Assembly: GCA_045634345.1 (NCBI GenBank)
Contig: JAZRAB010000183.1
Coordinates: forward strand, 1-38,305
From: Candidatus Flemingiibacterium sp.
GTDB taxonomy: Bacteria; Bacillota; Clostridia; Oscillospirales; CAG-272
Direction: 5' to 3'
Length of the DNA: 38,305 bases
Part shown: positions 3,866 to 36,074 of the stretch, piece after piece
Numbering within the stretch: position 1 is the first letter of the stretch
How the letters are laid out: every line of letters begins with the position of its first letter
Position numbers and translations under genes: made by a program
Notes under the pieces: generated by a model
Told to the model about the DNA's origin: nothing
Seen by the model: only the letters and a program-made list of their open reading frames with translations
Databases searched by the model: none

Positions 3866-5200
3866 ATGTTAAAAGCTGGAATGACAAGAGTTGATATCAC
3901 ACCTGAGCAGGGCATAGAGCTTGAAGGTTATCCTCACTATCCAAGATACAATACCGGTGCACACGATCCGCTGTATGCGGCTTGTATGTATCTTAATAAC
4001 GGCAAAGAAGAGATCGCAATGGTTACTCTTGACCTCTTGTTCTTCTCGAAGATATATGTTGCGGAAGTGCGCCGTAAAGTAGAAGAAAAGTGTGGTCTCA
4101 AGGGTGCTAACATCATGTTCAGTTGCTCACATACACACTCCGGTCCTGCGGCATCCGGCTTCATCGATGTTGAGGATCTTGAAAAGGGAAGAGAGCAGCC
4201 GATGGATTACATCAACAGTCTTATTGCAAAGCTTGTTGATATTATCGTTGAAGCAAAAACAAATGCATTTGACGGATATTTTGCTTACGGTACTGCTATC
4301 TGCGGTGCTGAATCGGGCGTTGGCGGAAATCGCCGTATGCCGGGCGGACCGCATGATCCGCTGGTAAGCGTTATGGCGGTAAAGGACACAAATGATGTCG
4401 TTCGCGGCGCACTTGTAAACTACACTCTCCATCCGACGTTTATTCACGAATGGAGCACTGTCTGTACAGCTGACTATCCTGCTTACCTCAAAATGCAGAT
4501 TGAAGAAGTATATCCGAATGCTCTTACCGGCTTCTCGCAGGGATGCTCTGGCAATCAGTCGAGCCGTTACTATCGTCAGGGCGAAAGCTATGATGAGGCA
4601 GAGCGCGTAGGACGCGCTATCGGTAAAGCGGCTAATACCGTTATCGCAAAGGCAAATTGGATGAACGACTTCGAGATTAAGACTGCGTCCAAGGAGATTG
4701 AGATCGATACTCGCAACTTCGGCACAGAGGAAGAGCTTGTTGCGCAGGTTGAAAGAGATACCGCAATTTATAAGGAGCTTTACGCAAAGTACGGTCAGTC
4801 CACTAACCGCGACGAATACTATCTCTGGCAGAATGCTAACCTCAAGTGCCTCGGCTCGGAAAATCAGCTCGGTTATGTACGTATTCAGAACAAGGGCATT
4901 AAGATCGAGATGCTCGAGGATGAAAATCCTGCTGAAATTCAGGTGTTCAACATTGGCGGAGTCGCTGTTGTCGGATTCCCGGGTGAGGCGTTCGTTGAGT
5001 ACGGCCTCTACATAAAGGCAATGGCAGGCTTCGGTATGGTCGTTGTAAACGAGCTTACCAACGGTGACCTTCCGGGCTATATGTACACACCAGAGTCTAT
5101 TGTTACCGGCGGTTACGAGACAGATACTTCCATGCTTGCCCCCGGATTCGGACGCAAGGTTGTTGATACTGTTCTTGAGGTCGCTGAGCTTGTAAAATAA
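3866..5200 (+). CDS. Hydrolase resembling the neutral/alkaline (non-lysosomal) ceramidase N-terminal domain family, paralogue 1
   Basis: 444 aa. Motifs seen: ITP..G..L.GYP, GAHDPLYA, CSHTHSGP and GGNRR.PGGPHDP. It is collinear with the next gene. The family call is from memory of PF04734-like proteins and is unverified. Confidence 0.55.
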   Translation: MLKAGMTRVDITPEQGIELEGYPHYPRYNTGAHDPLYAACMYLNNGKEEIAMVTLDLLFFSKIYVAEVRRKVEEKCGLKGANIMFSCSHTHSGPAASGFIDVEDLEKGREQPMDYINSLIAKLVDIIVEAKTNAFDGYFAYGTAICGAESGVGGNRRMPGGPHDPLVSVMAVKDTNDVVRGALVNYTLHPTFIHEWSTVCTADYPAYLKMQIEEVYPNALTGFSQGCSGNQSSRYYRQGESYDEAERVGRAIGKAANTVIAKANWMNDFEIKTASKEIEIDTRNFGTEEELVAQVERDTAIYKELYAKYGQSTNRDEYYLWQNANLKCLGSENQLGYVRIQNKGIKIEMLEDENPAEIQVFNIGGVAVVGFPGEAFVEYGLYIKAMAGFGMVVVNELTNGDLPGYMYTPESIVTGGYETDTSMLAPGFGRKVVDTVLEVAELVK

Positions 5201-5225: not shown

Positions 5226-6560
5226 ATGCTTAAGACCGGATTTGCAAGAACAGATATAACACCTCCCCGGGGACTTTCGCTGATGGGATATCCGCACTAT
5301 GACAGATTTAATACCGGTGCACACGATCCGCTTTATGCGGCTTGTATGTATCTCGACAACGGTGAAAACGCCGTTGCTATGGTAACGCTTGACCTCCTTT
5401 ATTTCTCAAAGCCGTATGTAATGAAGGTTCGCAAGCTCGCCGAGGAAAAATGCGGTATCAACGGTGAAAATATTATGATCACCTGCACGCATACACATTC
5501 CGGTCCACGTGCATATAAAATGGTCGCTGACGATGATCCTGCAACTGCTGACCCGAAGCGTGATGCATATGTTGAGGATATTATCGTTAAGATAGCTGAC
5601 CTTGTTGCAGAGGCGAAGAATACCGCATTTGACGGAGAATTTGCGTACAATGTGGCACTTTGCGGCGCAGAGCAGGGTGTTGGCGGCAACCGCCGTGTAC
5701 CCGGTGGACCACACGATCCGCTTGTTTCCGTAATGGCTGTAAAGGACATGAAGGGCGATCTTCGCGGCGTGCTCGTGAACTATTCGCTTCATCCGACATT
5801 TATTCATGAGTGGGTAAACGAATGTACCGCGGACTATCCTGCGTATGTTAAGATGCAGGTTGAGGAAACTTATCCCACTGCACTTTCCGGATTCGGTCAG
5901 GGTGCATCGGGCAATCAGTCGAGTCGTTATTACCGTAAGGGTGAGAGCTTCGACGAGGCAGAGCGCGTAGGACGCGCTATCGGTAAGGCTGCCTGTGAAG
6001 CTATCGCAAAGATGAAGTGGCTCTCTGACATCGAAATCAAGACAGTATCCACCACAATGGAGATGGAGCTTCGTGATTTTGGTCCGATTGAGGAACTCGA
6101 AAAGCAGGTTGAGCATGATACTGCCGTGTACAAGGAGCTTTATGCAAAGTACGGCAAGTCGGAAAAGCGCGAGGAATACCTGCTTTGGCAAAATGCAAAC
6201 CTTAAGTGCCTCGGCTCGGAGAACAAACTTGCGTATGCACTGAAGATAAAGAACGGCGAAAAGCTTGACCGTCTTCAGGACGAAAGCCCGGTTGAGCTTC
6301 AAGCGTTCAATCTCGGCGGACTCTGCGTGATCGGCGTTCCCGGCGAGATGTTCGTGGAATATGCGCTTTATGTTAAAGCAATGGCAGGCTTTGGTATGGT
6401 TATTTTCAATGAAACAACTAACGGCTGCTTGCCCGGATATGTACATACTCCGGAGGCGCTTACTTTTGGTGGATATGAGACAGATACCTCTGTAATTGGG
6501 GAGAAATTCGGTCAGCATATAGTTAAAAAAATACTCGATACAGTCGAAAAAATAAAATAA
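5226..6560 (+). CDS. Ceramidase-like hydrolase, paralogue 2 (tandem duplicate of 3866-5200)
   Basis: 444 aa, gap-free alignment by eye with the preceding protein at roughly two-thirds identity. Same motifs (CTHTHSGP, GGNRRVPGGPHDP). Confidence 0.55.
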   Translation: MLKTGFARTDITPPRGLSLMGYPHYDRFNTGAHDPLYAACMYLDNGENAVAMVTLDLLYFSKPYVMKVRKLAEEKCGINGENIMITCTHTHSGPRAYKMVADDDPATADPKRDAYVEDIIVKIADLVAEAKNTAFDGEFAYNVALCGAEQGVGGNRRVPGGPHDPLVSVMAVKDMKGDLRGVLVNYSLHPTFIHEWVNECTADYPAYVKMQVEETYPTALSGFGQGASGNQSSRYYRKGESFDEAERVGRAIGKAACEAIAKMKWLSDIEIKTVSTTMEMELRDFGPIEELEKQVEHDTAVYKELYAKYGKSEKREEYLLWQNANLKCLGSENKLAYALKIKNGEKLDRLQDESPVELQAFNLGGLCVIGVPGEMFVEYALYVKAMAGFGMVIFNETTNGCLPGYVHTPEALTFGGYETDTSVIGEKFGQHIVKKILDTVEKIK

Positions 6561-6578: not shown

Positions 6579-7541
6579 ATGATTAACGGACCAGACAACT
6601 TCACATTTAAACCAGCAGATTTTTATCCTTTCAGGGATACTGAGGATATTGCTCGTGTTCGTGCAATTACCAAGGAAGACATTATCGCAATGAACGGCAA
6701 GCATCCCACTTCTCCTACAATGCAGATTCATCTGCCCCGTCCCGAGGAAATGGCGATCATAATGGTTGCCGATATTGTACAGCGTATCGTCGATTCGGAC
6801 AGATATGACAAGAAGTGTGTCATGATTATGCCGAACCCCAATACCGGTTATATTCAGGCGGCACACATTCTCAAAAAGCTGAAGGTGAATTGCCGCAATG
6901 TCAAGTTCTATATGATGGACGAGTGGGCAGACGAGGACGGCAATATAGCACCTCTCTCCTATAAGCAGGGCTTCGGTAATGCTTTCTACCGTTTCATGGT
7001 ATCGGAGATTCTCGAGCTCGGTTTCAAGGAAGAAAACTTTATCTATCACAGCAATAAGATTACCCCCGACTATTCGAAGATGCTCGAAGCTGACGGTGAG
7101 GCTGATATTGTTTACTCCGGTCCCGGATGGCCCGGTCATCTCGCATTTATTGATCCTGTTGAGGATTGGTATAAGCCTACCATGGAAGAGTATCTCGCGC
7201 AGGGCGCAAAGGTTGCAAGTCTCCATCCGCTTACTATCGCACAGAACTCCCTCCACGGCTCATTTGGTTGCTCCGGCGATATCGCAAAGGTTCCGCCGAA
7301 GGGGGCAATGATGGGTCCGAGAGACGCTATGAAGGCAAAAGAGGTTTACGACTTCCACGGAATCACTACCGCAGGTACCCATGTTACTTGGCAGAGACTG
7401 ACTTCTCGCCTCTGCATTTTCGGCAAGCCGAGCCAGGAAGTTCCCGCATCCATACTCCAACTCCGCGATAAGCCTACTCATGTATTCATGAGCGAGCAGA
7501 ATGCGGCTACAATTGAACCTGATTACTTCTTCCAGTATTGA
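6579..7541 (+). CDS. NagB/6-phosphogluconolactonase-superfamily sugar-phosphate isomerase/deaminase-like protein
   Basis: 320 aa. Segments align by eye to E. coli NagB: MMDEW (NMDEY), SGPGWPGHLAFIDP (GGVGNDGHIAFNEP) and PPKGAMMG (PKYALTVG). It carries a long N-terminal extension. Confidence 0.6.
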   Translation: MINGPDNFTFKPADFYPFRDTEDIARVRAITKEDIIAMNGKHPTSPTMQIHLPRPEEMAIIMVADIVQRIVDSDRYDKKCVMIMPNPNTGYIQAAHILKKLKVNCRNVKFYMMDEWADEDGNIAPLSYKQGFGNAFYRFMVSEILELGFKEENFIYHSNKITPDYSKMLEADGEADIVYSGPGWPGHLAFIDPVEDWYKPTMEEYLAQGAKVASLHPLTIAQNSLHGSFGCSGDIAKVPPKGAMMGPRDAMKAKEVYDFHGITTAGTHVTWQRLTSRLCIFGKPSQEVPASILQLRDKPTHVFMSEQNAATIEPDYFFQY

Positions 7542-7564
7542 TTTTGTGGAGAAAGGTTGCATAT

Positions 7565-8497
7565 ATGATTTCATGTACGGAATTTATACCTGCTTATAGC
7601 GAGCTTTTTACTTACCTTGAGGACAATTACGGCAGAGCCGAGGTTGATCGCTTCTGGAAGTATCTTTTTGAGCCGACGGGCAACGGGATTCCACTTATCA
7701 ATTTCGTGAAAAAGGAAGGTATCCGAGGCTGCTTCTCATATTGGTCAGGAACCCTCACCGAGGAAGCCTCGGACTGCACTATTTATCTTAACGAAAAAGC
7801 CGGCTGGTTCATGAATGTTATGTATAAATGTCCCTCGAAGGGAAGACTCCTTAAATTGAAAGATGAGATCGGAATTGAACCGTATCACGACTACTGTCTG
7901 CACTGTGACTGCTATCGCGCGGCAATAGAACAGGTAGGACTTAAGTACATGTACAATTTCCAAGGCGTCGATCATGCTGCTTGCTCACTCATTATATACG
8001 ATCCAAAGGTTTTCGACGGACGCATAATAATCGATGAGAATACGGAAAAGCTCGAGGTGCGTGCTTCGGAGAACGAGTACTTCCACCGCGATTTCCACAG
8101 CAGCATGAATATGGGTATTCATTACCTCGGTGAAAATTACGGTCTTACGGTGGTTGAGGATTATCTTGCACGCTATACCAAAAACGTGTACAGAAAAGAG
8201 ATTGCGGATATCGAAAAGGGCGGCATTGATGCTATTGCGGATAAGATATGCGATACCTACGAAAAAGAAAAATCTCCCGACGCAGTAGAGCTTGTGCGTG
8301 ACGGTGCAAGGCTTACCGTCAATGTGAAGTATTGCCCGGCAGTAAAGCATCTGAAAGCAACCGGACGAGTTGTTTCGCCGTGGTATCGTTATACTACAGA
8401 AGTTGTGATGGAAACTCTCGCAAAAGCGGCGGGGGCAAGCTTTAAAATGCTGTCTTACGACGAAGAGAACGGTGCGGCTTGCTACACTTTTGAGTGA
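7565..8497 (+). CDS. Uncharacterised Cys-motif protein, paralogue 1 (two-module; possible ATC-hydrolase/V4R-like fold)
   Basis: 310 aa counted from ATG 7565. An aaagg RBS-like element precedes it and the start context is identical to that of its paralogue, so the track's upstream start at 7538 is rejected. Conserved KCPSKG...YC.HCD...AAC signature in the N-terminal half, and YCP...AACYTFE in the C-terminal half. Confidence 0.6.
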   Translation: MISCTEFIPAYSELFTYLEDNYGRAEVDRFWKYLFEPTGNGIPLINFVKKEGIRGCFSYWSGTLTEEASDCTIYLNEKAGWFMNVMYKCPSKGRLLKLKDEIGIEPYHDYCLHCDCYRAAIEQVGLKYMYNFQGVDHAACSLIIYDPKVFDGRIIIDENTEKLEVRASENEYFHRDFHSSMNMGIHYLGENYGLTVVEDYLARYTKNVYRKEIADIEKGGIDAIADKICDTYEKEKSPDAVELVRDGARLTVNVKYCPAVKHLKATGRVVSPWYRYTTEVVMETLAKAAGASFKMLSYDEENGAACYTFE

Positions 8498-8553: not shown

Positions 8554-9486
8554 ATGATTTCATGTACGGAATATATTCCTGCATACAGTGAGTTTTTTAC
8601 CTATCTTGATGAAACCTACGGTAAAGAGGAGTTAGACCGTTTCTGGGAGTATCACTTTGCACCTACGGGTAAGGGTATACGTCTCATCAATTTCCTTAAG
8701 GCAGAGGGGCTAAAGGGCTGTTATACTTACTGGTCTGCCGCACTCAAAGAGGAGGCTGCGGACGTTACCATCTATTTGAACGAAAAAGCAGGATGGTTTA
8801 TGACTGATATGCACAAATGCCCTTCAAAAGGTAAATTGCTTAAGTTGAAGGATGAGTTTGGTTTTGTGCCTTATCACAGTTACTGTATGCACTGCGACGG
8901 CTATCGCGCCGCTGTGGAGCAGGTCGGACTTAAATATATGTACGATTTTGTCGGCTGTGACCGCGCAGCATGCCGTCTTATCATTTACGACCCTAAGGTG
9001 TTCAATGAACGGGTAATCGTTGACGAAAACACAAAGATACTCGACATCCGAGCCTCCGAGAACGAATACTATCATCTTGATTTTCACCGCAGCATGAACA
9101 GCGTAATCAATTATGTCGGCGAAAATCACGGTATTTCGGCGGTCGAGGATTATCTCGGACGTTACACAAGAAATGTTTGTTTGAAACAGATGACCGATAT
9201 CGAAACTCGCGGTATCGATGCGATTGCCGACAAGATACGTGATACATATGAGAAGGAAAAATCTCCCGACGCAGTAGAGCTTGTGCGCGATGGCGGAAAG
9301 CTTACCGTCAATGTGAAGTATTGCCCGGGTGTTAAGTATCTTAAGGATACGGGACGTATTGTTTCACCGTGGTATCGCTATACTACAGAAGTTGTGATGA
9401 AGGCTCTTTCTGAAAAAGCCGGTGTAAGCTTTAAAATGCTGTCTTACGACGAGGAAACAGGTGCGGCTTGCTACACTTTCGAATAA
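8554..9486 (+). CDS. Uncharacterised Cys-motif protein, paralogue 2 (tandem duplicate of 7565-8497)
   Basis: 310 aa, collinear with the previous protein at roughly 70 percent identity by eye. It shares the MISCTE start and the Cys pattern. Confidence 0.6.
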   Translation: MISCTEYIPAYSEFFTYLDETYGKEELDRFWEYHFAPTGKGIRLINFLKAEGLKGCYTYWSAALKEEAADVTIYLNEKAGWFMTDMHKCPSKGKLLKLKDEFGFVPYHSYCMHCDGYRAAVEQVGLKYMYDFVGCDRAACRLIIYDPKVFNERVIVDENTKILDIRASENEYYHLDFHRSMNSVINYVGENHGISAVEDYLGRYTRNVCLKQMTDIETRGIDAIADKIRDTYEKEKSPDAVELVRDGGKLTVNVKYCPGVKYLKDTGRIVSPWYRYTTEVVMKALSEKAGVSFKMLSYDEETGAACYTFE

Positions 9487-11176: not shown

Positions 11177-11983
11177 ATGGCTTTTCTTGAAGTACGAAAC
11201 TTAAAAAAGCATTTCGGAAACACTTCCGTCCTTCACGGTATCGACTTTTCAATGGAAAAAGGCGAGGTCGTGGCAATAATCGGCTCATCGGGCGGTGGAA
11301 AAACTACATTCCTTCGCTGTCTCAATTTTCTTGAAATGGCAAACGAAGGCACAATCGATATTGATGGCGGCTTTCATTTCGATGCCAATGCCGCATACAG
11401 TAATGCCGAGATTCGTGCAATGCGCTTGAAGATGGGATTGGTATTTCAGTCGTTCAATCTTTTTCCGCAGTATACGGCGCTTGAGAATGTTTATCTGCCG
11501 CTTCAACTGCGTACCAAAGAGAAGATACGCGGTGAACTTCCATTCGGACGAGCAAGACGCAATGCGTATATCGAAGCTCAGAAGGAAAATCAAGATATTG
11601 CCAAGAGTATTCTCACAGAGGTGGGGCTTGGCGATAAAATGGGCAACTATCCTTGTCAGCTTTCTGGTGGACAACAGCAGAGAGTTGCTATTGCACGCGC
11701 GCTTGCACAAGAGCCGGCGATACTTTGCTTCGACGAGCCGACCAGTGCGCTTGACCCCGAGCTTACGGACGAGGTTTTGCGTGTCATCAAAGAGCTTAAG
11801 GACCGCGGACGCACCATGCTCGTGGTTACTCATGAGATGGAGTTTGCGCGAAATGTTGCCGATAGAGTAGTCTTTTTTGCAGACGGACTTATCGAGGAAG
11901 AGGGCGCACCCGCCGATATCTTCACAAATCCGAAATCCGAAAAGACTGCGGCATTCCTGCATCACGGCGCAGGGAATATATAA
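11177..11983 (+). CDS. Amino-acid ABC transporter ATP-binding protein
   Basis: 268 aa. Walker [10 protein letters not shown], signature [15 protein letters not shown], Walker [13 protein letters not shown] and H-loop VVTHEM. It has an extra segment of about 18 aa between the Q-loop region and the signature motif, relative to E. coli GlnQ as I recall it. Confidence 0.85.
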
Positions 11984-12014
11984 TTGCATATTACCTTCTA
12001 ACAGGATTCCAACG

Positions 12015-12049
12015 AAAAAACGCACTCATTTTTTATGAGCGCGTTTTTT
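12015..12049 (+). terminator. Rho-independent terminator of the ABC operon
   Basis: aaaaaacgcactcat / atgagcgcgtttttt hairpin with flanking A and T runs. Confidence 0.7.
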
Positions 12050-12055
12050 CGTGTA

Positions 12056-12369
12056 TAAATTATTGTTTATCGGGGAGTTTTATGCTTCGATTATTGCAGC
12101 TCCCAAGCGACGCTATGCGCCGCCTACCGTATTGCTCGCGGCGGCAATGCCACCGCTCGGGAGGGGGAGCCACTGCTCTCAAACGCCGATGCGTGCTCCC
12201 CCTCCACCCCCTCAAGCCTCGGCTTAGCCGAGTCAAGGAAGGGAGTGCAGAGGGGAACCTATGGATCGGCGTTTGAGAGCAATTGGTTCCCCTCTGCATA
12301 TCGGCAGGCGGTGCAGCGCACCGCAAGGAGCATCGTTGTTCGGAGCGCCCCCTATAAACTCAAATTTAC
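12056..12369. repeat. GC-rich nested-palindromic mosaic repeat, copy 1 (arm A - core - arm B')
   Basis: The left arm (12056-12130) matches the reverse complement of the right arm of copy 2 and of copy 3. The right arm (12299-12369) matches the reverse complement of the left arm of copy 2. The core (12131-12298) is nearly identical to the copy 2 core in direct orientation. Confidence 0.85.
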
Positions 12370-12418
12370 AATTAACTTCACAAGCTTCCGATATTTCGCT
12401 GAAAATATCGAAAACATA

Positions 12419-12447
12419 TTGCCTCATGAATAAAAAGATGCTATAAT
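12419..12447 (+). promoter_or_regulatory. Promoter for the MFS/GDPD genes
   Basis: TTGCCT (12419-12424), 17-nt spacer, TGcTATAAT (extended -10; TATAAT at 12442-12447). Confidence 0.55.
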
Positions 12448-12486
12448 ATTGTAAACTATGTAAAACACAAAGGATGGTATCTTGCA

Positions 12487-13869
12487 ATGAAACTGAATTA
12501 TAAACGCACTGTTCTTGTCGGCTTTGCATTTTTCCTTATCTGCACTTTCTGGCAGGCGTATGACACCGTGATCCCGAAAATTCTTACCGATAAATTTGGT
12601 ATGTCGCAGAGTCTTTCGGGTGCGGTTATGGCACTTGATAATGTTCTCGCAGTTATACTTCTGCCTATCTTTGGCGCAATATCCGACAGACACAATGGAA
12701 AGCGCGGAAGACGCACGCCATTTGTCCTTGTCGGTACCGTTCTTGCCGCTATAGCATTTGTCGGACTCTCATTTGTGGATAACGTGCAGCTTGCCGCTAT
12801 TGAGAAGGGGGTTGCCGAAATCGGTCTTGAGGCGACTGAAGCGCGTCTTGCGTATGCTTGGGAGATGACATGCAGTAATCCCGTGATCCTTATATTTTTT
12901 ATGTTGATGCTTCTAGTTGTGCTTCTCTCAATGGCGATATTCCGTTCTCCGGCGGTTGCGCTTATGCCTGACGTTACACCTAAACCGCTTCGCTCAAAGG
13001 GCAATGCTGTAATCAACCTGATGGGCGCTGTGGGCGGAATCCTTGTGCTTGCCCTCGGTATCATCTTTGGCACGGGCAAGCCGGAAAATACATTTATGAG
13101 CTATACGCCATTCTTCGCGGTTATTGCGGCGGTGATGCTTGGTGCGCTTGCTATATTCTCGCTTACGGTCAAAGAAAAGAAATGGGCGGCGGAGGCTGAT
13201 GCTGTAAATGATAAGATGGATGACTCCGAAGACATACGCAGTGTAACCCAAGAAAAACGCTCGCTTACTAAGGGGGAGCTTAAATCCCTGCTTTTCATTT
13301 TGGCATCTGTGGTGCTTTGGTATATGGGCTATAACGCGGTTTCAAGTAAATACTCGGTCTATGCGGGAGAGGTGTTAAAGCTTGATTATAATCTCACTCT
13401 TATGGTGGCTCAGGCAGCGGCAATCGTATCGTATATTCCCGTTGGTATCATTTCGCAGAAATTTGGGCGTCGTAAAACTATTTTGGCTGGTGTTGCCATG
13501 CTTGGCATTGCTTTCGGTTGTGCGTACTTCATGGGCGAGGGAAGCAATATCTGGGTGATGAACGCACTGTTTGCTCTTGCAGGAATCGGTTGGGCGACGA
13601 TCAATGTGAATAGTTATCCCATGGCCGTTGAACTTGCAAGCTCGGGCGATACCGGCAAATATACGGGATACTACTACACTGCATCTATGGCGGCACAAAC
13701 CGTTACGCCGATACTTTCGGGATTCTTCATGGACATAAATCTTAAAACTCTTTTCCCGTATGCAACTATATTTGTAGCACTTGCGTTTGTGACTATGCTT
13801 TTTGTTCGCCATGGCGATATTAAAACAGATTCCAAAAAGGATCTGCTCGAGCATTTTGATGTGGAGTAA
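12487..13869 (+). CDS. MFS transporter (GPH/SLC45-like)
   Basis: 460 aa with about 12 predicted TM segments. SDRHNGKRGRRTPF loop motif after TM2 and a long charged central loop. Confidence 0.75.
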   Translation: MKLNYKRTVLVGFAFFLICTFWQAYDTVIPKILTDKFGMSQSLSGAVMALDNVLAVILLPIFGAISDRHNGKRGRRTPFVLVGTVLAAIAFVGLSFVDNVQLAAIEKGVAEIGLEATEARLAYAWEMTCSNPVILIFFMLMLLVVLLSMAIFRSPAVALMPDVTPKPLRSKGNAVINLMGAVGGILVLALGIIFGTGKPENTFMSYTPFFAVIAAVMLGALAIFSLTVKEKKWAAEADAVNDKMDDSEDIRSVTQEKRSLTKGELKSLLFILASVVLWYMGYNAVSSKYSVYAGEVLKLDYNLTLMVAQAAAIVSYIPVGIISQKFGRRKTILAGVAMLGIAFGCAYFMGEGSNIWVMNALFALAGIGWATINVNSYPMAVELASSGDTGKYTGYYYTASMAAQTVTPILSGFFMDINLKTLFPYATIFVALAFVTMLFVRHGDIKTDSKKDLLEHFDVE

Positions 13870-13873
13870 TAAA

Positions 13874-14677
13874 ATGGCGATTATAATAATATCTATTGTA
13901 CTGCTTGCAGGACTCTATATGTTTGTGTTGATACGTCCGAGATTACATGCTCGCCATGATAAACAGCTCGACACCGACTATGCGCATCGGGGACTCCACC
14001 GCAGAGGAGTGCCGGAAAATTCACTTGCGGCATTTGAGCGTGCTGTGGTACACGGCTATGGAATTGAGCTTGATGTTCAGCTTTCACGCGACGGAGAGGT
14101 CATGGTATTTCATGATTATACTCTTGAGAGAATGACCGGCAGGGAAGGACGGCTCTGCGATTTTTGCGCGGATGAGCTTTCATCAATGCGCCTTGCCGAT
14201 ACAGATGAAACCATACCGCAGCTTCGTGATGTGCTAGGACTTGTAAATGGGCGTGTTCCACTTCTTATTGAATTGAAAGGCGAAAGCGCCGATGTTTCGC
14301 TTTGTGAGCCGCTTTCTCGTCTGCTTGGGGAATATGATGGAGCTTTTTGCATAGAATCCTTCAATCCGATACTGCTTGGAGAGATGGCGAAGTGTATGCC
14401 GCAGGTCTATCGCGGCATACTGTATACCAACCTTTGCCGCGATAAAAAGAAATATTCGCTTCTCAATATCGCGCTTACCGGTATGGTTACCAATATTATT
14501 GCACGCCCTGATTTTATTGCATATAATGAAAAATACCGGGGCTCTATGTTGTTATGGCTTATTACGCATTTGTACCGTCCAAACAAATATTGCTGGACAG
14601 TAAAAAGCAAAGCGGATTACGATATTGCAAAGAGAAATGAGGAATTTGTTATTTTTGAGAATTTCAAACCCGAATAG
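13874..14677 (+). CDS. Membrane-anchored glycerophosphodiester phosphodiesterase family protein
   Basis: Start moved to ATG 13874 (ggag RBS 7 nt upstream), which avoids overlap with the MFS gene. N-terminal TM helix, then the GDPD motifs AHRGL..PENSL.AF and GIELDVQLSRDGEVMVFHD. Confidence 0.75.
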   Translation: MAIIIISIVLLAGLYMFVLIRPRLHARHDKQLDTDYAHRGLHRRGVPENSLAAFERAVVHGYGIELDVQLSRDGEVMVFHDYTLERMTGREGRLCDFCADELSSMRLADTDETIPQLRDVLGLVNGRVPLLIELKGESADVSLCEPLSRLLGEYDGAFCIESFNPILLGEMAKCMPQVYRGILYTNLCRDKKKYSLLNIALTGMVTNIIARPDFIAYNEKYRGSMLLWLITHLYRPNKYCWTVKSKADYDIAKRNEEFVIFENFKPE

Positions 14678-14855
14678 TATTGTTCAAGGTTATGAGCACG
14701 GTAAAAATGAGAAAGCATTGTCGTATTCAACAAACTTTGAGCGAGCTTTTTGTGGAGTTTGCCTGAGGGCGAAAGCGATTTGTGAAAATGCAATGAAATG
14801 TGCTATTAAATACGGTTTTGAGGAGCATTTGCTTGTATACTTTTAAGGCGAATTT

Positions 14856-14864
14856 TGCTATAAT
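14856..14864 (+). promoter_or_regulatory. Extended -10 element (TGcTATAAT) upstream of the surface protein gene
   Basis: tgctataat at 14856-14864. No good -35 at 17 nt, so this is an extended -10 type only. Confidence 0.4.
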
Positions 14865-14878
14865 TACAATGTAATGAA

Positions 14879-14908
14879 GGGAATATTCTGCGGCCGCAGA
14901 ATATTTCC
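14879..14908 (+). other. 5'-leader hairpin centred on GCGGCCGC
   Basis: 24-nt perfect palindrome aatattctgcggccgcagaatatt (14882-14905), plus two flanking G-C pairs and one G-T wobble. Confidence 0.5.
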
Positions 14909-14973
14909 TAATATCAGATTCGAGCGTATTCGTTCGAACTCTAATAAAATTTTTTTCGAAAGGACGAAAAATT

Positions 14974-16119
14974 ATGAAGAAATTTCTTGCATTCGCTATT
15001 GCGGCATTAATGATGGTTTCCTGCTTCGCAGTAACCACTGTTGCTGCAGATGGTGCTCTTAAGATGGGTACCGCAACAGTTGACGGTATTCTCGACGATG
15101 TCTACACCGGTTCCGTTATGATCAAGGAGGCAGGTAAGGATGCTTCTCAGAACCAGCTTCCCTCCGAGTGGAACGGTTCCTGCTACGCAGATATTTATCT
15201 CATGTATGACAACGAGTATCTTTACATTTTTGCACATGTAACAGACGATGATGTTCTTTCAAGAGGAAGAGCATATGCTATCGGCACCGTAAACCCTAAC
15301 GACAATGATGTAATTGAGTTCAGACTCGTTTTCAACGGCGTTGATGACGACCAGTTCAAGGTATCTGTTGATGCTTTCGGTTATCAGCTTTTCGGTCTTC
15401 CGTGGCACTATGACATCATAGACTACAGCACCTTCGAATATGCAGTAAAGACTGATGATGTTGCAGGTACATATGATGTTGAGGTTGCGATCCCCTGTAC
15501 CAAGGGTACTCTTGACCTTATAAAGTACGGTACACTTGGCTTTGCATTCCAGATCAACGATATAGACTACAACGGCAGAACCACTCAGTTCTCGCTCTAC
15601 AGCTCCAATGCGGCTAACGTATGGACCAGTGCTAAGTACAGCCTTTCCGGTGAAAAAGCTGTTGCCGGTTCCGGTAGCACAGTAAGCGCAGGTCCTATCG
15701 AAGGTACCCTCGCAGCTCCCGAGACCACCGCAGCTCCTGAAACTTCTGCAGCTCCCGAGACTACTGTAGCACCCGAGACCACCGCGGCTCCTGAAACTAC
15801 TGCGGCTCCCGACACCACTGCTGAGGTTGAAGATACTACTGCAGAGGCAGAGGATACCCCTGCTGAGGTTGAAGACACCACTGCAGAGGCAGAGGATACC
15901 ACTGCTGACGTTGAAGACACCACTGCAGAAGCAGAGGATACCACTGTAGAGGACGACAAAGACACCGACGCTGATACAACTGAAGCTCCGAACACTACCG
16001 CAGCTACAGGCACTGACGATGAGGGTGGAATCAATCCTATCGCAATCGTTGGAATCGCAGCAGCAGTTATTGTAATTGCAGCAGTTGCAGTTATCCTTGC
16101 AAAGAAAAAGAAGAACTAA
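14974..16119 (+). CDS. Secreted, membrane-anchored surface protein with a CBM9/DOMON-like domain and a Thr/Glu/Ala/Pro-rich repeat stalk
   Basis: 381 aa. It has a signal peptide, a DGILDDVY...YLMYDNEYLYIFAHVTDDDV...FAFQINDID pattern typical of CBM9-like domains, tandem repeats, and a C-terminal TM helix plus KKKKN stop-transfer. Confidence 0.65.
   Translation: MKKFLAFAIAALMMVSCFAVTTVAADGALKMGTATVDGILDDVYTGSVMIKEAGKDASQNQLPSEWNGSCYADIYLMYDNEYLYIFAHVTDDDVLSRGRAYAIGTVNPNDNDVIEFRLVFNGVDDDQFKVSVDAFGYQLFGLPWHYDIIDYSTFEYAVKTDDVAGTYDVEVAIPCTKGTLDLIKYGTLGFAFQINDIDYNGRTTQFSLYSSNAANVWTSAKYSLSGEKAVAGSGSTVSAGPIEGTLAAPETTAAPETSAAPETTVAPETTAAPETTAAPDTTAEVEDTTAEAEDTPAEVEDTTAEAEDTTADVEDTTAEAEDTTVEDDKDTDADTTEAPNTTAATGTDDEGGINPIAIVGIAAAVIVIAAVAVILAKKKKN
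15712..15945 (+). repeat. In-frame tandem repeats: 6 x 18 nt (AAPETT) followed by 6 x 21 nt (AE[VA]EDTT)
   Basis: Read directly: 15712-15819 encodes AAPETT-like units and 15820-15945 encodes AEVEDTT/AEAEDTT-like units. Confidence 0.9.
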
Positions 16120-16131
16120 TCTTCTGTAAAT

Positions 16132-16163
16132 AAAAAAGTGCTTGCGGCCGCAAGCACTTTTTT
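16132..16163 (+). terminator. Rho-independent terminator of the surface protein gene
   Basis: aaaaaagtgcttgcggccgcaagcactttttt is a perfect palindrome with A and T runs, so it is bidirectional in form. Confidence 0.8.
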
Positions 16164-16194
16164 ATGGCGCTAGCCATTGGAATGGCACGTGCTA

Positions 16195-16637
16195 TAAATT
16201 TGAGTTTATATAGGAGTTTGCGCTTCGAGCGTTGGTGCTCCTTGCGGTGCGTTGCACCGCCTGCCGTACTGCTCGCGGCGGCTTTGCCCCCTCTCGGGAG
16301 GGGGGCCACTGCTCTCAAACGCCGATGCGTGCTCCCCCTCCACCCCCACAAGCCTCGGCTGCTCGACAACCTGAAATTATAGATATAACCTATATTTTAG
16401 AAGCCGAGTTAGCCGAGCCAAGGAGGGGAGTGCAGAGGGGAACCTATGGATCGGTGTTAGCAGGTCACGACGTGACCTGCGTGTAAGTTCGGCAAAGTCC
16501 AACTTTATAGCAAGTCGGCGAAGCCGTCTTGCTTGAGAGACAATTGGTTCCCCTCTGCAAATACGGCAGGCGGCGAAAACGCCGCTTGGGAGTTACGACA
16601 ATCGAAACATTAAACTCCCCTACAAACAATAATTTAC
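16195..16637. repeat. GC-rich nested-palindromic mosaic repeat, copy 2 (arm B - core with two insertions - arm A')
   Basis: Arms are swapped relative to copy 1 while the core is in the same orientation. There are two extra segments (about 16351-16402 and about 16466-16531) that are absent from copy 1. Confidence 0.85.
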
Positions 16638-16666
16638 AAAAAGCAAAGCAGATAACGGCAATACTG

Positions 16667-17551
16667 TTATCTGCTTTGCTTTCTAAATTGATTAGGCGTG
16701 ATTCCTACATGCTTTAAGAACATGGACTCAAACCCTTGTCTTGTCTCATATCCGCATTGATCGGCGATCTCGTCAATTGACATGTCGCTTAATTGCAGAT
16801 ACTGCTTTGCGGCACTTATGCGTATTTCACGCAGCTTTTCGGTGAATGTCATGGCAAAACACTTGTCGAGTATGCGGCGCATTTGCGTGCGGCTGTATGA
16901 AAAATATTCGGCAAGGGAATTGAGGGTTATCTGCTGTGAATAATTAAGATAAAAATAGCTTTCAATCTTAGCGTATAGGTTGATTTTTGGAATTTCTTCG
17001 GGAATCTGTCGGCTGTCTAATACATTGATGCGTTCGAGAATGTAGCTGATTATGATTCCGAACTGTGCCTTAATACGGTATTTCTCAAGGCGTGACGGGG
17101 CAGTATGCTGGAAATTACGCAGACTTTCAATAAGATGGAATATCATTGACTTTTCCTCATCATTGAGCGCGTAATGCATGTATGGGGGAAGAGACTCTGT
17201 TAAATCCTTGTCCTCTGCTGCCATATTGAATCGCATGCCAAATCTTCGTATGTCGCTTGAGTACGAGAGGAGACGATGCTTTGTATGCGGCTTTATTAGA
17301 AGAACCTCGCCTGATTTGACGGTACAGCTTTCATTGCCGATAAGTACTTCGAATGATCCGTCTTCGACTATCAAAATTTCATTTGCGGCATGATCGTGAT
17401 ATGTGAGGGAGGGGGTAAGATGAGTTTGCGTTTGATCTATCTCATAGTCTATCAGTATGTCTACGGTTACATCTTCACAGACAACGGTGACGGAGGTAGG
17501 GATTTCCAATGTATCTATGTAGTCTTTTTCAATTGATTTTGTATGCGGCAT
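16667..17551 (-). CDS. AraC-family transcriptional regulator (N-terminal cupin sensor, C-terminal HTH)
   Basis: 294 aa. C-terminal region (LNSLAEYFSYSRTQMRRILDK...IDEIADQCGYETRQGFESMFLKHVGITPNQFR) is a typical AraC double HTH. The N-terminal half is cupin-like. A hairpin at 16643-16680 overlaps the stop codon. Confidence 0.85.
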   Translation of the reverse strand: MPHTKSIEKDYIDTLEIPTSVTVVCEDVTVDILIDYEIDQTQTHLTPSLTYHDHAANEILIVEDGSFEVLIGNESCTVKSGEVLLIKPHTKHRLLSYSSDIRRFGMRFNMAAEDKDLTESLPPYMHYALNDEEKSMIFHLIESLRNFQHTAPSRLEKYRIKAQFGIIISYILERINVLDSRQIPEEIPKINLYAKIESYFYLNYSQQITLNSLAEYFSYSRTQMRRILDKCFAMTFTEKLREIRISAAKQYLQLSDMSIDEIADQCGYETRQGFESMFLKHVGITPNQFRKQSR

Positions 17552-20436: not shown

Positions 20437-20506
20437 AATTTTTAATACTCCTTTAGCATGATTTATAAGCTTGATGATTGATTCATCTAAATCATACCAA
20501 TTATAT

Positions 20507-20535
20507 ATTATACCACACTATATTGTTTTTTTCAA
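20507..20535 (-). promoter_or_regulatory. Promoter of the CofE-like gene
   Basis: Minus strand: TTGAAA (20530-20535), 17-nt spacer, TGgTATAAT (TATAAT at 20507-20512). Confidence 0.6.
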
Positions 20536-20735
20536 TATTTTTTAAGAAATTTTTCGATAAAGATATTATAAAAATTTTGTCTGCATGCAAAGCTGTTTTG
20601 GGTATTTTGTGCGAGCGTAAAATTGTATAGATGTCGGAGTTGTTATATTGTCGATATCCGGGGATTGCGGTGCGGTATTTTTTTGATAAATCTGCAAAAA
20701 AATGTCAGTTATGAGTGGAAAATCGAAAATTACTA

Positions 20736-25381: not shown

Positions 25382-25409
25382 AAAGCCTCCAAACGGATGT
25401 TCTTTAAAT

Positions 25410-25438
25410 ATTATATCACAAAAAAATATGTTTGTAAA
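25410..25438 (-). promoter_or_regulatory. Promoter of the SLOG gene
   Basis: Minus strand: TTTACA (25433-25438), 17-nt spacer, TGaTATAAT (TATAAT at 25410-25415). Confidence 0.65.
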
Positions 25439-25457
25439 TAGGTTTTATGAAAAAATT

Positions 25458-26967: not shown

Positions 26968-28197
26968 TTATTTAATATCCATCACAGTGCCGATAAAGAA
27001 GGGAAGCGCGGTTTCGGTATCAATGAGCATGAATACAAACGGACGGTCGAGGATTACCGTTTTGGTATCGGGGGACTCCATAGATGCGCCATCCTTCATT
27101 TCGATAACGGTTGCGGCACCTGCTTTTGTTCCGCGCTCGCCTACTGAAATGTAGGTCTTGTGGAGCACACGGCTGATGAAGATATTTCCGGCAGCAGAGC
27201 TTCCGAGAGATGAAAAATCAGCAAGCTCTGGATTAAAGGCATCCGTCATTCCCATACTTGCAAGCACCCCTGCAAGCTCTGTATCAAATTCAAACTCGAA
27301 TTTGGGAATACCTGCGTTTACAGGTGCATTTGTAGGATTTTCGAGCATTGAGTGGAGCGATTCACCGCTGAGAGATACAATGTAGTCCCCAACGCTTGTG
27401 CCCTCATTCGGCAGAAGAGCTGCAAAGGCATATTTTCTGTCTTTATAATATTTGATAAAACCGGATGCATTTTCATCTCCGATGTATTCATATTCATCGG
27501 AATACATCATTTTTACATTGCGTTCGTTTCCGCCTTCTGTCGTAAAGATGGTGTCATGTACCTGATTCTTTTTGTATATACTTTGCCATTCCGCTTCAAA
27601 GGCAAGCGCATTTACAAGATACATCACTGCATCTGATGGAATATTATCGAGAATTTGTGGGATCATCCCGTCGGTTTTTTCTTTAACCCAACTGTTGATT
27701 CTGTTTTTTGTGATTGGATTAAACGGCGTTTTGAATATATCCGCGCCGTAGTAATCGGCGTTTGTCTGGAGAAAATCATCGTTTACGGTGAAGCGCTCAT
27801 CGTCTGTAAACCAAATAGAGTTTGCAAGATTAAGCTTGTATTTTTCATCTTTCGGCAGCACATCTGTATAAGCCTTTAAGCAAGAATTGAGTGAGTCCAC
27901 ATCGAGTCCGAACATTGCTTCCATTTGAGCGAGTGTGTCTCCCTCGGCGCCGTTGACAACCATGGCAAGTGCGGAGAGTACGGACAACGGAGAGATAAGA
28001 GTGTTTTTGCCGTCAGTGTACGATTCTGTGAGCAAACGCACACCGAAATCGGTAATCTCATTACCGACATCTTTTATATCAGTAGTTATAATATTGTCGC
28101 TTGGCGTGATACCCGATGAAATATTGGCAGTACTTACTGTGCCGCATGAAGTAAGAATAAGTGAGACAAGAATGAATAGGGAAGCGATTCGTTTCAT
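26968..28197 (-). CDS. Serpin-family protease inhibitor, lipoprotein
   Basis: Start set at MKRIASLF (28197), with aaaggag RBS 7 nt upstream. Lipobox LTSCG, SPLSVLSALAMVVNGAEGDT serpin N-terminal motif, and hinge/RCL ERGTKAGAATVIEMKDGASM followed by LDRPFVFMLID. Confidence 0.85.
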   Translation of the reverse strand: MKRIASLFILVSLILTSCGTVSTANISSGITPSDNIITTDIKDVGNEITDFGVRLLTESYTDGKNTLISPLSVLSALAMVVNGAEGDTLAQMEAMFGLDVDSLNSCLKAYTDVLPKDEKYKLNLANSIWFTDDERFTVNDDFLQTNADYYGADIFKTPFNPITKNRINSWVKEKTDGMIPQILDNIPSDAVMYLVNALAFEAEWQSIYKKNQVHDTIFTTEGGNERNVKMMYSDEYEYIGDENASGFIKYYKDRKYAFAALLPNEGTSVGDYIVSLSGESLHSMLENPTNAPVNAGIPKFEFEFDTELAGVLASMGMTDAFNPELADFSSLGSSAAGNIFISRVLHKTYISVGERGTKAGAATVIEMKDGASMESPDTKTVILDRPFVFMLIDTETALPFFIGTVMDIK

Positions 28198-28271
28198 AAG
28201 CGTTCTCCTTTTAGCGTAGAAAATCTTCTGCATATTTGACGTAATAAATTAAAAAAAGTTCCCTGACATGC

Positions 28272-31912: not shown

Positions 31913-31989
31913 TGGCGTCCCCGGCGCGATTCGAACGCGCGACCTTCCGCTTAGGAGGCGGATGCTCTATCCTGCTGAGCTACGGGAAC
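31913..31989 (-). tRNA. tRNA-Arg (anticodon CCU), CCA encoded
   Basis: The minus strand reads GTTCCCG-TA-GCTC-AGCAGGATA-GAGC-A-TCCGC-CTCCTAA-GCGGA-AGGTC-GCGCG-TTCGAAT-CGCGC-CGGGGAC-G-CCA. This gives a full cloverleaf with a 7-nt anticodon loop centred on CCT. Confidence 0.9.
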
Positions 31990-35032: not shown

Positions 35033-35072
35033 CGCCGTCGCTCCTTTCACACGATTTTATATATAATACAAT

Positions 35073-35101
35073 ATTATACCACAATTTACTGATTATTTCA
35101 A
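35073..35101 (-). promoter_or_regulatory. Promoter of the cls-flippase operon
   Basis: Minus strand: TTGAAA (35096-35101), 17-nt spacer, TGgTATAAT (TATAAT at 35073-35078). Confidence 0.65.
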
Positions 35102-35134
35102 GATATATAAAGCAACGATTGGCAAAAATATTTC

Positions 35135-35278
35135 GGATTTAAGTTTGTCGGGGAGTTTGCGCTCCGAGCTTTGATGCTCCTTGCGGTGCCTCCCCTTGCA
35201 ACCCGGCAGGCGGCGCAACGCGCCGCTTTGGAGCTGCAATAATCGAAGCGATAAACTTCACGATAAATAATAATTTAC
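35135..35278. repeat. Minimal copy (arm B-like - 13-nt spacer - arm A') of the mosaic repeat family, lacking the core
   Basis: The right part (35203-35278) matches arm A' of copy 2 and the reverse complement of arm A of copy 1. The left part contains gcgctccgag...gatgctccttgcggtgc, as in arm B. It ends 4 nt from the stop codon of gene 35283-36074. Confidence 0.8.
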
Positions 35279-35282
35279 TATT

Positions 35283-36074
35283 CTAAAACGAAGCTTTTTT
35301 ATAAATATAAGCCTTGTTTACCGTATCCGTATGCTCGATAACGCCAAGCGTTATGAGCGTTTGCAGTGCGTAACCGGCGGTGCGGCGTGTCATTTTTGCG
35401 GCTTTTGCAAATTCAGCGGCGGTGAACTCGTCATCAAGTGCGGGAGGAACAAGCACGGTAAAATCTGACGGCTTTTCAAGTGTTATGATATCTACAAGCT
35501 CTGTTGGGATTCGCTCATACCGTGATGCGCCAAAATGCTTTTTATCACGGCTGCGTCCCGTGAGAAGACGAAACTCATCCATGTTGCAGAATATCAATGT
35601 GAAGCATACACCTTCAAGCGGCATTATCGGACGAAGCGCGTACAGCTCGTACAGAATATCCCACGGCTTCCCCTGCTTTGGCGATTTGCGCCGCTCAGTT
35701 ACTTCGCCGCTTTCGGGATTTATCCACGAAATATGCTTCTCAGCGGCAATGGGGTAGACGACATTTACGCGGTATTCAGGCGTATATTCAGTCAGCTTTT
35801 TTGAGAGAGCGGAGAAGTGGCGTGTTTGTATTTCCGTAATCTCGCCGTCTTTGCATATATCCGCGACAAAGCGCCCGAGCTTTTGTTCATGATATGTCGT
35901 ATCAGGCTCGATGAAGTTTTTTACGATAGCGTGGAGCGTCTTTTCCCCGAGCGTACCGATTCCGAGACGTTTCATGCCGCCAATGAGCATTGCACGGCAG
36001 CAATTTGCAAAAAAATATTTGTCGGTTTCACTTGCCGATATAGAGTCAGATATTAATTCCTTGCCGTTTTCCAT
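35283..36074 (-). CDS. Hypothetical protein; possible PD-(D/E)xK-like nuclease core with C-terminal winged-helix domain
   Basis: 263 aa. GEKTLHAIVKNFIE ... FVADICKDGEITEIQTR resembles an E...D...ExQ/K nuclease signature. The C-terminus (FTAAEFAKAAKMTRRTAGYALQTLITLGVIEH) is HTH-like. RBS aagggag. Confidence 0.4.
   Translation of the reverse strand: MENGKELISDSISASETDKYFFANCCRAMLIGGMKRLGIGTLGEKTLHAIVKNFIEPDTTYHEQKLGRFVADICKDGEITEIQTRHFSALSKKLTEYTPEYRVNVVYPIAAEKHISWINPESGEVTERRKSPKQGKPWDILYELYALRPIMPLEGVCFTLIFCNMDEFRLLTGRSRDKKHFGASRYERIPTELVDIITLEKPSDFTVLVPPALDDEFTAAEFAKAAKMTRRTAGYALQTLITLGVIEHTDTVNKAYIYKKASF

Follow-up and report, generated by a model that had tools for sequence, protein, structure and literature searches.

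Dispersed palindromic repeats have been investigated thoroughly in Proteobacteria (repetitive extragenic palindromes, REPs; bacterial interspersed mosaic elements, BIMEs; and hairpin-forming REP doublets, REPINs) and in streptococci (BOX and RUP elements), but hardly in the uncultured gut Clostridia which dominate animal microbiomes. Here we describe such a repeat in a stretch of 38,305 nucleotides from Candidatus Flemingiibacterium sp. (contig JAZRAB010000183.1; 'the window'). It is a 443-base intergenic spacer (16195-16637), named copy 2, and has a sister, copy 1, ~4 kb away; in both, a 'core' of two inverted hairpin units (P and Q) lies between two arms (A and B). We consider it, on balance, probable that copy 2 belongs to a previously undescribed multi-copy, non-coding and mobile family of mosaic nested-hairpin repeats of uncultured Ca. 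Flemingiibacterium-like gut Clostridia, and that it was re-oriented by exchange at short inverted boxes. A literature search returned no description of this family, nor of repeats in Ca. Flemingiibacterium.

The family works like the REP/BIME/REPIN group, but is no demonstrable member of it. As described for REPs and BIMEs (PMC3333891), it comprises high-copy extragenic imperfect palindromes of several types, which stand singly or are paired in inverted orientation (head-to-head or tail-to-tail) across linkers that vary; modules enter chimeric, 'atypical' combinations in which type-specific stem positions stay complementary; and the repeats reside between genes and after terminators, with a copy content per locus that varies among strains. 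However, the units measure ~75 nt (compared with ~35 nt for a REP), carry an invariant 17-nt loop and a CTCGGCT tail instead of a 5' GTAG and a stem mismatch, and form pairs enclosed by 72-nt arms with termini resembling those of MITEs (miniature inverted-repeat transposable elements), and the host belongs to the Clostridia rather than being E. coli or another proteobacterium. The transposase TnpA_REP recognises the conserved 5' GTAG tetranucleotide together with the stem mismatch (PMC3333891). In our unit alignment a conserved GTAG is absent from the foot of the hairpin, the conserved parts being the 17-nt loop and the CTCGGCT tail, and the 38-kb window holds no gene for TnpA_REP or another REP-associated tyrosine transposase (RAYT). 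REPINs are mobilised by RAYTs, and a genome with REPINs has a cognate single-copy RAYT gene (encoding a Y1 HUH transposase) that the repeats typically flank. With REPINs (PMC3116915) the family shares the inverted doublet with a less conserved spacer, the folding of the whole into a long hairpin with common compensatory changes, a doublet that is apparently the replicative entity, and polymorphism by excision or absence. Here, however, the halves P and Q are distinct subtypes and not near-identical copies, the doublet is nested in an outer inverted pair (the arms), and further modules are found inside loops.

The BOX elements of Streptococcus pneumoniae (boxA-boxB(n)-boxC) are likewise modular repeats of a Firmicute host, in which terminal modules serve as inverted ends and the internal modules vary in number; they span tens to hundreds of nucleotides, have strong secondary structure and include repeats inserted into one another (PMC3049150). 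Their internal modules are tandem and direct, however, and neither an invariant loop nor module inversion is described for BOX; sequence similarity is not apparent, and the resemblance is architectural only. MITEs such as the Correia elements of Neisseria and Nezha are also short, non-coding, highly base-paired, bounded by terminal inverted repeats and polymorphic in presence (PMC3049150), but the present family is GC-rich rather than AT-rich, lacks a detectable target-site duplication and a known parent insertion sequence, and has an interior that is a mosaic of independent modules.

Architecture of copy 2 and of the repeat family

The window contains three related intergenic loci, namely copy 1, copy 2 and a core-less locus 3, in which profile searches (nhmmer) identify exactly four units and six arms. 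Their parts, together with the terminator upstream of copy 2, are:

16195-16266, plus strand: arm B of copy 2, with terminal motif TAAATTTGAGTTTAT, outer hairpin GGAG..CTCC, inner hairpin GCGGTGCGTTGCACCGC and box CCGCCTGCCG (nhmmer arm profile, E=5e-19)
16270-16360, plus strand: P-type unit (nhmmer unit profile, E=1.6e-14; 92% direct match to 12120-12224)
Within the P unit: upstream hairpin 16270-16295; stem 16296-16309 / 16327-16341; loop TGCTCTCAAACGCCGAT 16310-16326; tail ACCCCC..CTCGGCT 16342-16360
16361-16401, unstranded: insertion 1, an AT-rich linker between the two unit tails, missing from copy 1
16402-16417, minus strand: duplicated tail of the Q unit, CTCGGCT AA CTCGGCT on that strand
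16411-16559, minus strand: Q-type unit (nhmmer partial match 16411-16458; 96% and 94% direct matches to copy 1)
Within the Q unit: loop halves 16450-16458 and 16534-16543, split by insertion 2; stem 16431-16449 / 16544-16559
16459-16533, unstranded: insertion 2, a 75-nt three-hairpin module inside the Q loop, with AGCAGG/CTTGCT inverted ends
16564-16636, minus strand: arm A', with box CGGCAGGCGG at 16564-16573 and terminal motif ..CAAACAATAATTTA (nhmmer arm profile, E=6e-19; 83% to the reverse complement of 12056-12133)
12056-12369, plus strand: copy 1, consisting of arm A 12056-12129, P unit 12133-12224, Q unit 12226-12298 (minus) and arm B' 12302-12369
35137-35277, plus strand: locus 3, consisting of a truncated arm B 35137-35189, a 14-nt filler and arm A' 35204-35277, with zero units
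16130-16165, plus strand: terminator of the CBM9 surface-protein gene, a perfect 18-bp inverted repeat

The first-pass annotation, made from the sequence alone, had proposed that the core keeps its orientation between the two copies while the arms are swapped, and our alignments bear this out. When 16150-16700 is compared with the window by BLAST, the core matches copy 1 directly (16257-16360 to 12120-12224 at 92%, 16409-16454 to 12224-12269 at 96% and 16541-16573 to 12280-12311 at 94%), whereas the arms match in inverted orientation (16236-16266 to 12332-12302 at 97% and 16560-16636 to 12133-12056 at 83%); since E-values reach 1e-34, a chance match is excluded. Global alignment of the cores after removal of the two extra segments yields 92.4% identity in direct and 62.8% in reversed orientation. 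Likewise, the left arm of copy 2 is 79.7% identical to B of copy 1 (69.7% to A), and its right arm 80.3% identical to A' (62.2% to B'). The points at which the orientation switches are the 10-nt inverted boxes CCGCCTGCCG (16257-16266) and CGGCAGGCGG (16564-16573), which are found in copy 1 at 12120-12129 and 12302-12311.

The annotation had treated the core as one module. It turns out instead to consist of two inverted copies of a smaller unit, which also exists alone. Such a unit (~75 nt) comprises a G-rich/C-rich hairpin, of which the inner 5-6 bp vary from copy to copy, the invariant 17-nt loop and an ACCCC..CTCGGCT tail. In the core, two units stand tail to tail, P forward and preceded by an additional hairpin, and Q, which represents another subtype, reversed; the loops of P and Q are complementary because Q is a reverse-oriented unit. 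Arms A and B end in TAAATTAT.GTTTAT and align over their full length, having in common the terminal motif, the outer hairpin, the box and an inner hairpin in which a C-G/T-A difference is compensatory, and are therefore two subtypes of one 72-nt two-hairpin module. Hence, with the arms being subtypes of one module and the core being P plus Q, the 'core flip' amounts to an exchange of the unit subtype that stands beside a given arm subtype.

Outside the window, a looser version of the loop pattern retrieves, in species genomes, 13 loci in metagenome-assembled genomes (MAGs) of Candidatus Flemingiibacterium (Clostridia) and in one roe-deer Clostridia MAG, while the 17-nt loop matches 93 loci in metagenome contigs, among which L067 is the only true member. 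These members display the parts of the composite in various states of assembly: (i) units alone (L003, L004, L007, L009-L011 and L013), (ii) tail-to-tail unit pairs with linkers of 28-135 nt (L001, L006 and L008), and (iii) a single unit inside a ~190-nt element bounded by TAAATTATCGTTTATCG and its complement (L002 and L005, as well as L067 with the left end only). The elements of the third kind share with the window copies the terminal inverted repeats TAAATTAT(C/T)GTTTATCG and complement. Flanks of five complete elements, a limited sample compared by eye, revealed no target-site duplication, and no parent insertion sequence with matching ends was found in any locus examined, again a limited sample. 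The exact 26-nt core motif has zero matches in 185k species genomes, the junction pattern box-N(18-45)-loop none in the JGI metagenomes, and copy 1 none in plasmid and phage collections (blastn); in viral contigs, the 17-nt loop gives only four chance matches. The hairpin upstream of P-type units (12133-12158, compared with 1470-1497 of L013 and with L011 and L003) keeps a CAAT-like loop while at least three stem pairs are swapped from C-G to G-C between species (GCGGCGG..CCACCGC and GCCGCCG..CGGCGGC), that is, by transversion-type compensation.

Copy 2 was also said to carry two segments inserted in successive layers into hairpin loops. Both are indeed present, although with other borders (16361-16401 instead of 16351-16402, and 16459-16533 with 75 nt instead of ~65 nt). 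Insertion 2 lies exactly between ATCGGTGTT and TGAGAG, forms the hairpin CAGGTCACGACGTGACCTG at 16462-16480, and behaves as a repeated module of its own: its depth is 58-173 against 6.6 for the flanks in metagenome run X3 and 11-14 against 4.6 in X1 (3-25x flank depth). In runs X6, X4, X3 and X1 it follows ..ATCGGC in units with stems unlike that of the window Q, for example GCAGAGGGGGCGGATTGCTG and GGCGGGGGAAAGAACT; it also exists as a variant with a different first hairpin (CAGGTCGTAAGACCTG), and a shorter related insert (CGTGTCGAGTTCGCGTGCGAACTCG..) occupies the same loop position. Most units are free of inserts, their contigs joining 16458 to 16541, and about one unit in five to ten carries insertion 2 at the same loop point. 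A small three-hairpin module thus recurs at this site of the unit loop, either because it was inserted there repeatedly and site-specifically or because the stems diverged after a single old event.

Insertion 1 (41 nt, 29% GC, 16361-16401, or 16361-16409 when the extra AGCCGAG copy is counted) differs in that its position is occupied in other copies by unrelated linkers (40 nt in X3, 61 nt in X4, 28-135 nt in the three MAG loci with unit pairs), and X1 contigs skip from 16360 to 16411. It is best regarded as a lineage-private AT-rich linker, and may therefore reflect linker turnover rather than insertion into a hairpin loop. That it is an independent repeat was discarded in view of its zero depth in X3, X1, X6 and X4; the resemblance of its ATTATAGA stretch to the linkers of L001 and L006 (13/17) was too weak to be used; and a promoter inside it is no better supported than chance. 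The duplicated gccgag tta gccgag does exist (16403-16417), but its reading as the footprint of an insertion was likewise abandoned: GCCGAG-TT-AGCCGAG is a tail variant of the family which is found in units of other species, namely in L008 (same Q subtype) and L011, and in overlapping form in L013 and L067.

Mobility and the origin of the swapped arms

Comparison among strains and species shows that the repeat elements are mobile, whole elements being present in some and absent from others. (i) At the copy 1 site, a contig of run X5 joins 12052 to 12391, and one of X9 departs from the window sequence at 12052. (ii) At locus 3, contigs of X4 and X6 connect 35104 to 35297 through 55 other letters, in agreement with the ~51 nt of non-repeat spacer. 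(iii) The copy 2 site is bracketed by the convergent terminators of the CBM9 gene and of the AraC gene (16640-16682); in two related species with conserved synteny (L114 and L115), the spacer between AraC and the convergent gene for an anchored surface protein is ~86 nt long and consists of the two terminators only, as against 547 nt in the window. Contigs of wildlife and gut metagenome runs with related strains indicate a multi-copy family: in X3, where depths pool all sequence at least 85-90% similar in the sample and are thus upper bounds for one genome, the flanking genes have a depth of ~6.6, arm A of 50-77, arm B of ~200, the P unit of 115-180 and the Q unit of 590-735. Family depth is 10-100x flank depth, with tens of copies in unrelated contexts.

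The annotation had offered two origins for the discordance of arms and core, inversion across the boxes and insertion of a mobile core, in either orientation, into an arm doublet, and had not chosen between them; mobility and modularity are borne out by the empty sites at all three loci. The second option, in which the P-Q doublet or each unit is a mobile element that entered pre-existing arm doublets either way round so that nothing was ever inverted, draws on the arm-less units and doublets of ten MAG loci (L001, L003, L004, L006-L011 and L013), on the single units within elements bounded by terminal inverted repeats (L002, L005 and L067), on the core-less doublet in the window, on the nested insertion of small repeats documented for BOX, RUP and SPRITE (PMC3049150), and on the loop-specific recurrence of insertion 2, according to which modules do land inside modules. 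However, the sole core-less doublet is defective: in locus 3, arm B has lost half of its inner hairpin and one box is missing, so that it looks like a deletion derivative rather than a virgin target. Moreover, arms in X3 and X1 adjoin a unit in essentially all contigs, no joint of an intact empty doublet is seen, and the core boundaries carry no target duplication. With arms nearly always found beside a unit and the only core-less doublet truncated, the composite seems to travel as a whole.

What speaks most directly to this choice is the unit that stands beside arm A of copy 1. All four types of arm-unit junction (A+P, B+Q, B+P and A+Q) are found in several contigs of X3 and X1, so that both arm/core arrangements are common in related metagenomes, with copy 1-type junctions outnumbering copy 2-type junctions roughly two to one. 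A 616-nt contig of X3 carries the unique left flank of copy 1 (~97.6% identity over 250 nt) and continues into arm A with the distinctive inner hairpin of that copy, GCGACGCTATGCGCCGCCTACCG, but after ..CCGTAT it goes into GCAGAGGGGAACCAA, the start of a Q unit, where the window has P; a second, window-like haplotype of the same run (63 nt, 12084-12145) proceeds from arm A into P. Thus, the unit beside the arm A of copy 1 appears to differ between close relatives at the same locus. In-place exchange at the boxes predicts this replacement of P by Q and is favoured by it, whereas independent insertion, which would need loss followed by re-insertion at one site beside the same locus-specific arm, is disfavoured, and we regard such modular assembly as unlikely. 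The re-orientation is, in the reading that we favour, an evolutionary and not a programmed in-place inversion or exchange at the boxes.

Several points nonetheless weigh against box exchange. The 616-nt contig is a short-read k-mer assembly of a repeat and reaches only 15 nt past the junction, so that a chimeric path is possible; the two orientations in X3 reside on different arm haplotypes (distinguished at 12087 and 12095) and might come from two strains or from paralogues; and boxes of 10-12 nt are short for spontaneous recombination. Pfam scans of the 30 window proteins identified no gene for a transposase, RAYT-like protein, invertase or other recombinase in the 38 kb, nor was a target-site duplication or a defined cleavage site identified. 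Finally, the copies come from the window, MAG loci and metagenome contigs rather than from a complete genome-wide catalogue. No contig spans the left junction of copy 2 or, in X3-X6, its right junction.

Recurrence of the junctions bears on whether a short-read assembler simply took a wrong path through near-identical modules. Such an artefact would be conceivable in that metagenomes are the only source of the window lineage, the copies have exact stretches of more than 40 nt in common in their P and Q units, and contigs of public runs break at these repeats. Yet the junction formed by Q, A' and the AraC flank of copy 2 recurs in an independent X1 contig, the A+P junction of copy 1 recurs in X3, the B+P and A+Q junctions recur in several runs, and, as L114 and L115 have the flanking genes in synteny, two compensating path switches would be needed; we therefore regard an artefact as extremely improbable. 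In practice, these repeats break short-read assemblies of the genus, generate spurious open reading frames and would give rise to false inverton calls.

An inverton, that is, a phase-variable core flipped at the boxes by a site-specific invertase and possibly presenting a promoter-like site beside a surface-protein gene, must also be considered. As in invertons, a segment bounded by inverted repeats occurs in a gut anaerobe in both orientations relative to its flanks; copy 2 adjoins the gene of a CBM9 cell-surface protein, and the surroundings of surface genes are enriched in invertons (PMC11892184); one metagenome sample (X3) contains the copy 1 junction in both orientations; and a TTGGCT-16-TAAAAT site is present on the minus strand at 16421-16394, formed by the Q tail and insertion 1. 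Of the hallmarks of an inverton, however, the inverted repeats are the only one found. The cognate invertase of an inverton is often encoded within ~5 kb, but scans of the window detect no invertase or recombinase gene; promoter-like matches number 7 as against 7.2 in shuffled sequences, and an internal promoter would only drive antisense RNA, as the element lies between convergent terminators. Furthermore, the family is a dispersed repeat with tens of copies in unrelated contexts, and the right junction of copy 2 (Q stem, A' and AraC flank) is unchanged in an X1 strain that is ~7% diverged. PhaseFinder practice calls for at least five reads per orientation within a clonal population (PMC11892184), whereas X3 holds the two arm A junctions of copy 1 as assembled contigs on different arm haplotypes and not in one clone. 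A programmed inverton is thus very improbable.

Returning to exchange at the boxes, the discordance of arms and core would have arisen at the 10-12-nt inverted boxes CCGCCTGCCG / CGGCAGGCGG as an in-place inversion of the P-Q doublet, taking place over evolutionary time rather than as a programmed switch. Two routes may be envisaged. The first is template switching at hairpins or short homologies. The second is a trans-acting enzyme acting on single-stranded DNA, like those which cut REP/BIME modules and exchange their strands; the tail and the invariant loop would then serve as determinants of recognition and cleavage, while the stems would be free to covary. Precedent for the latter exists in E. 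coli, where REP types and linkers are combined into the chimeric 'atypical BIMEs', and where TnpA_REP cuts single-stranded BIMEs at iREP and linker sites and exchanges strands between them (PMC3333891). One may go further and speculate that the invariant loop on its covarying hairpin is the recognition site of a putative single-strand DNA (or RNA-guided) recombination system in Clostridia, which both flips the doublet at the boxes and inserts small hairpin modules site-specifically into the loop. This we consider a long shot, but if true it would represent a mobile system that nests in itself and targets hairpins while lacking a REP-type GTAG and a RAYT, and possibly a reversible switch at some loci. 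The clear grammar of the family (invariant loop, covarying stems, inverted pairs, outer arms and loop modules), combined with the evidence for in-place re-sorting, makes it a good system for mosaic-repeat assembly, and one suited to asking whether a single-strand DNA enzyme builds mosaic repeats.

Conservation of the hairpins

The GC-rich elements (54-58% as compared with ~46% for the window) fold more stably than shuffled sequence (z = -6.75 and -8.61, the former for copy 1 with a DNA fold of -83.5 kcal/mol), and their stems covary. Among 19 aligned units, seven of the 11 stem pairs exhibit double (compensatory) changes, and some pairs occur in four base-pair types; 90.1% of the cells are paired, a value reached by none of 500 shuffles (76.1%), and the covariation score is 0.405, as against 0.169 in shuffles and at most 0.22 in slid registers. 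Stem mismatches are symmetric, comprising 12 G.T and 12 A.C. This equality, together with the occurrence of units in both orientations, argues against a function as one-strand RNA, and what the alignment reflects is apparently a palindrome conserved at the level of DNA.

It is nevertheless worth weighing whether the units or composites are RNA genes or cis-regulatory parts, with the inserts as expansion segments. Strong covariation around an invariant loop is what such an RNA would exhibit, the variable hairpin inserts at a fixed loop position do resemble expansion segments, and start codons follow several of the single units at a distance of 30-80 nt. However, the units also occur as inverted pairs, and their presence/absence polymorphism among close strains fits mobile DNA. 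No Rfam family is matched: at the gathering threshold (Rfam 15) the window yields a tRNA only, and a permissive scan of 11950-16750 (E<=10) nothing credible. The genes adjoining units, which encode OTCase, Obg, a histidine-biosynthesis enzyme, argininosuccinate lyase, DnaX, GAPDH and others, are functionally unrelated. Taken together, this makes a structured RNA quite improbable. The more specific idea of a riboswitch or leader was dropped because neighbouring genes are unrelated and stems lack strand asymmetry. The tRNA gene (31916-31989, minus strand) is single and the sole match in the window at the gathering threshold.

Genomic setting and other features of the window

Beside copy 2, the gene of the CBM9-domain surface protein (14974-16119) contains in-frame 18-nt and 21-nt tandem repeats (15696-15973) which encode a linker rich in Thr, Pro, Glu and Asp; the protein carries a C-terminal membrane anchor and ends in KKKKN. 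The repeat number is likely strain-variable, and an X1 contig has a joint there that goes back 45. Two mechanically called open reading frames, 16091-16369 (minus strand, 92 aa) and 16232-16486 (plus strand, 84 aa), lie wholly inside the repeat, are almost certainly spurious and risk being misannotated as hypothetical proteins. Exact-protein look-ups for four flanking genes returned no record. In the lineage of L111-L113, the AraC orthologue stands beside a Tn916-type integrase/excisionase pair and an rve-family transposase (~4100-7500 in L111), so that the AraC neighbourhood there holds an integrative element which the window does not have.

The unit tail provides a TTGGCT hexamer which, where an AT-rich stretch follows 16-17 nt downstream, forms a promoter-like site, as it does with TAAAAT of insertion 1 at 16394-16421 (minus strand); at 958-1000 of L067, a TTGGCT tail is followed by TATAAA, a ribosome-binding site and ATG. 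Although such sites do not exceed chance in the scan of the window, unit tails might occasionally donate a -35 box. A separate AT-rich motif, ATATTATACCACA, is located at 20505-20549, 25408-25452 and 35071-35115 and also in the spacers of L005 and L115; its reverse complement, TGTGGTATAATAT, is, for genes on the minus strand, a perfect promoter element of the extended -10 type, and these sites are, judging from the motif, probably ordinary strong promoters.

Elsewhere in the window there are two pairs of tandem paralogues, one at 3866-5200 / 5226-6560 (444 aa each, ~71% nucleotide identity, with a weak ceramidase-like match at the N-terminus) and one at 7538-8497 / 8554-9486 (~72% identity, zero Pfam matches). 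A full-length serpin, a protein uncommon in bacteria and noteworthy in a gut anaerobe, is encoded at 26968-28233 on the minus strand (Pfam Serpin, E=2.5e-85).

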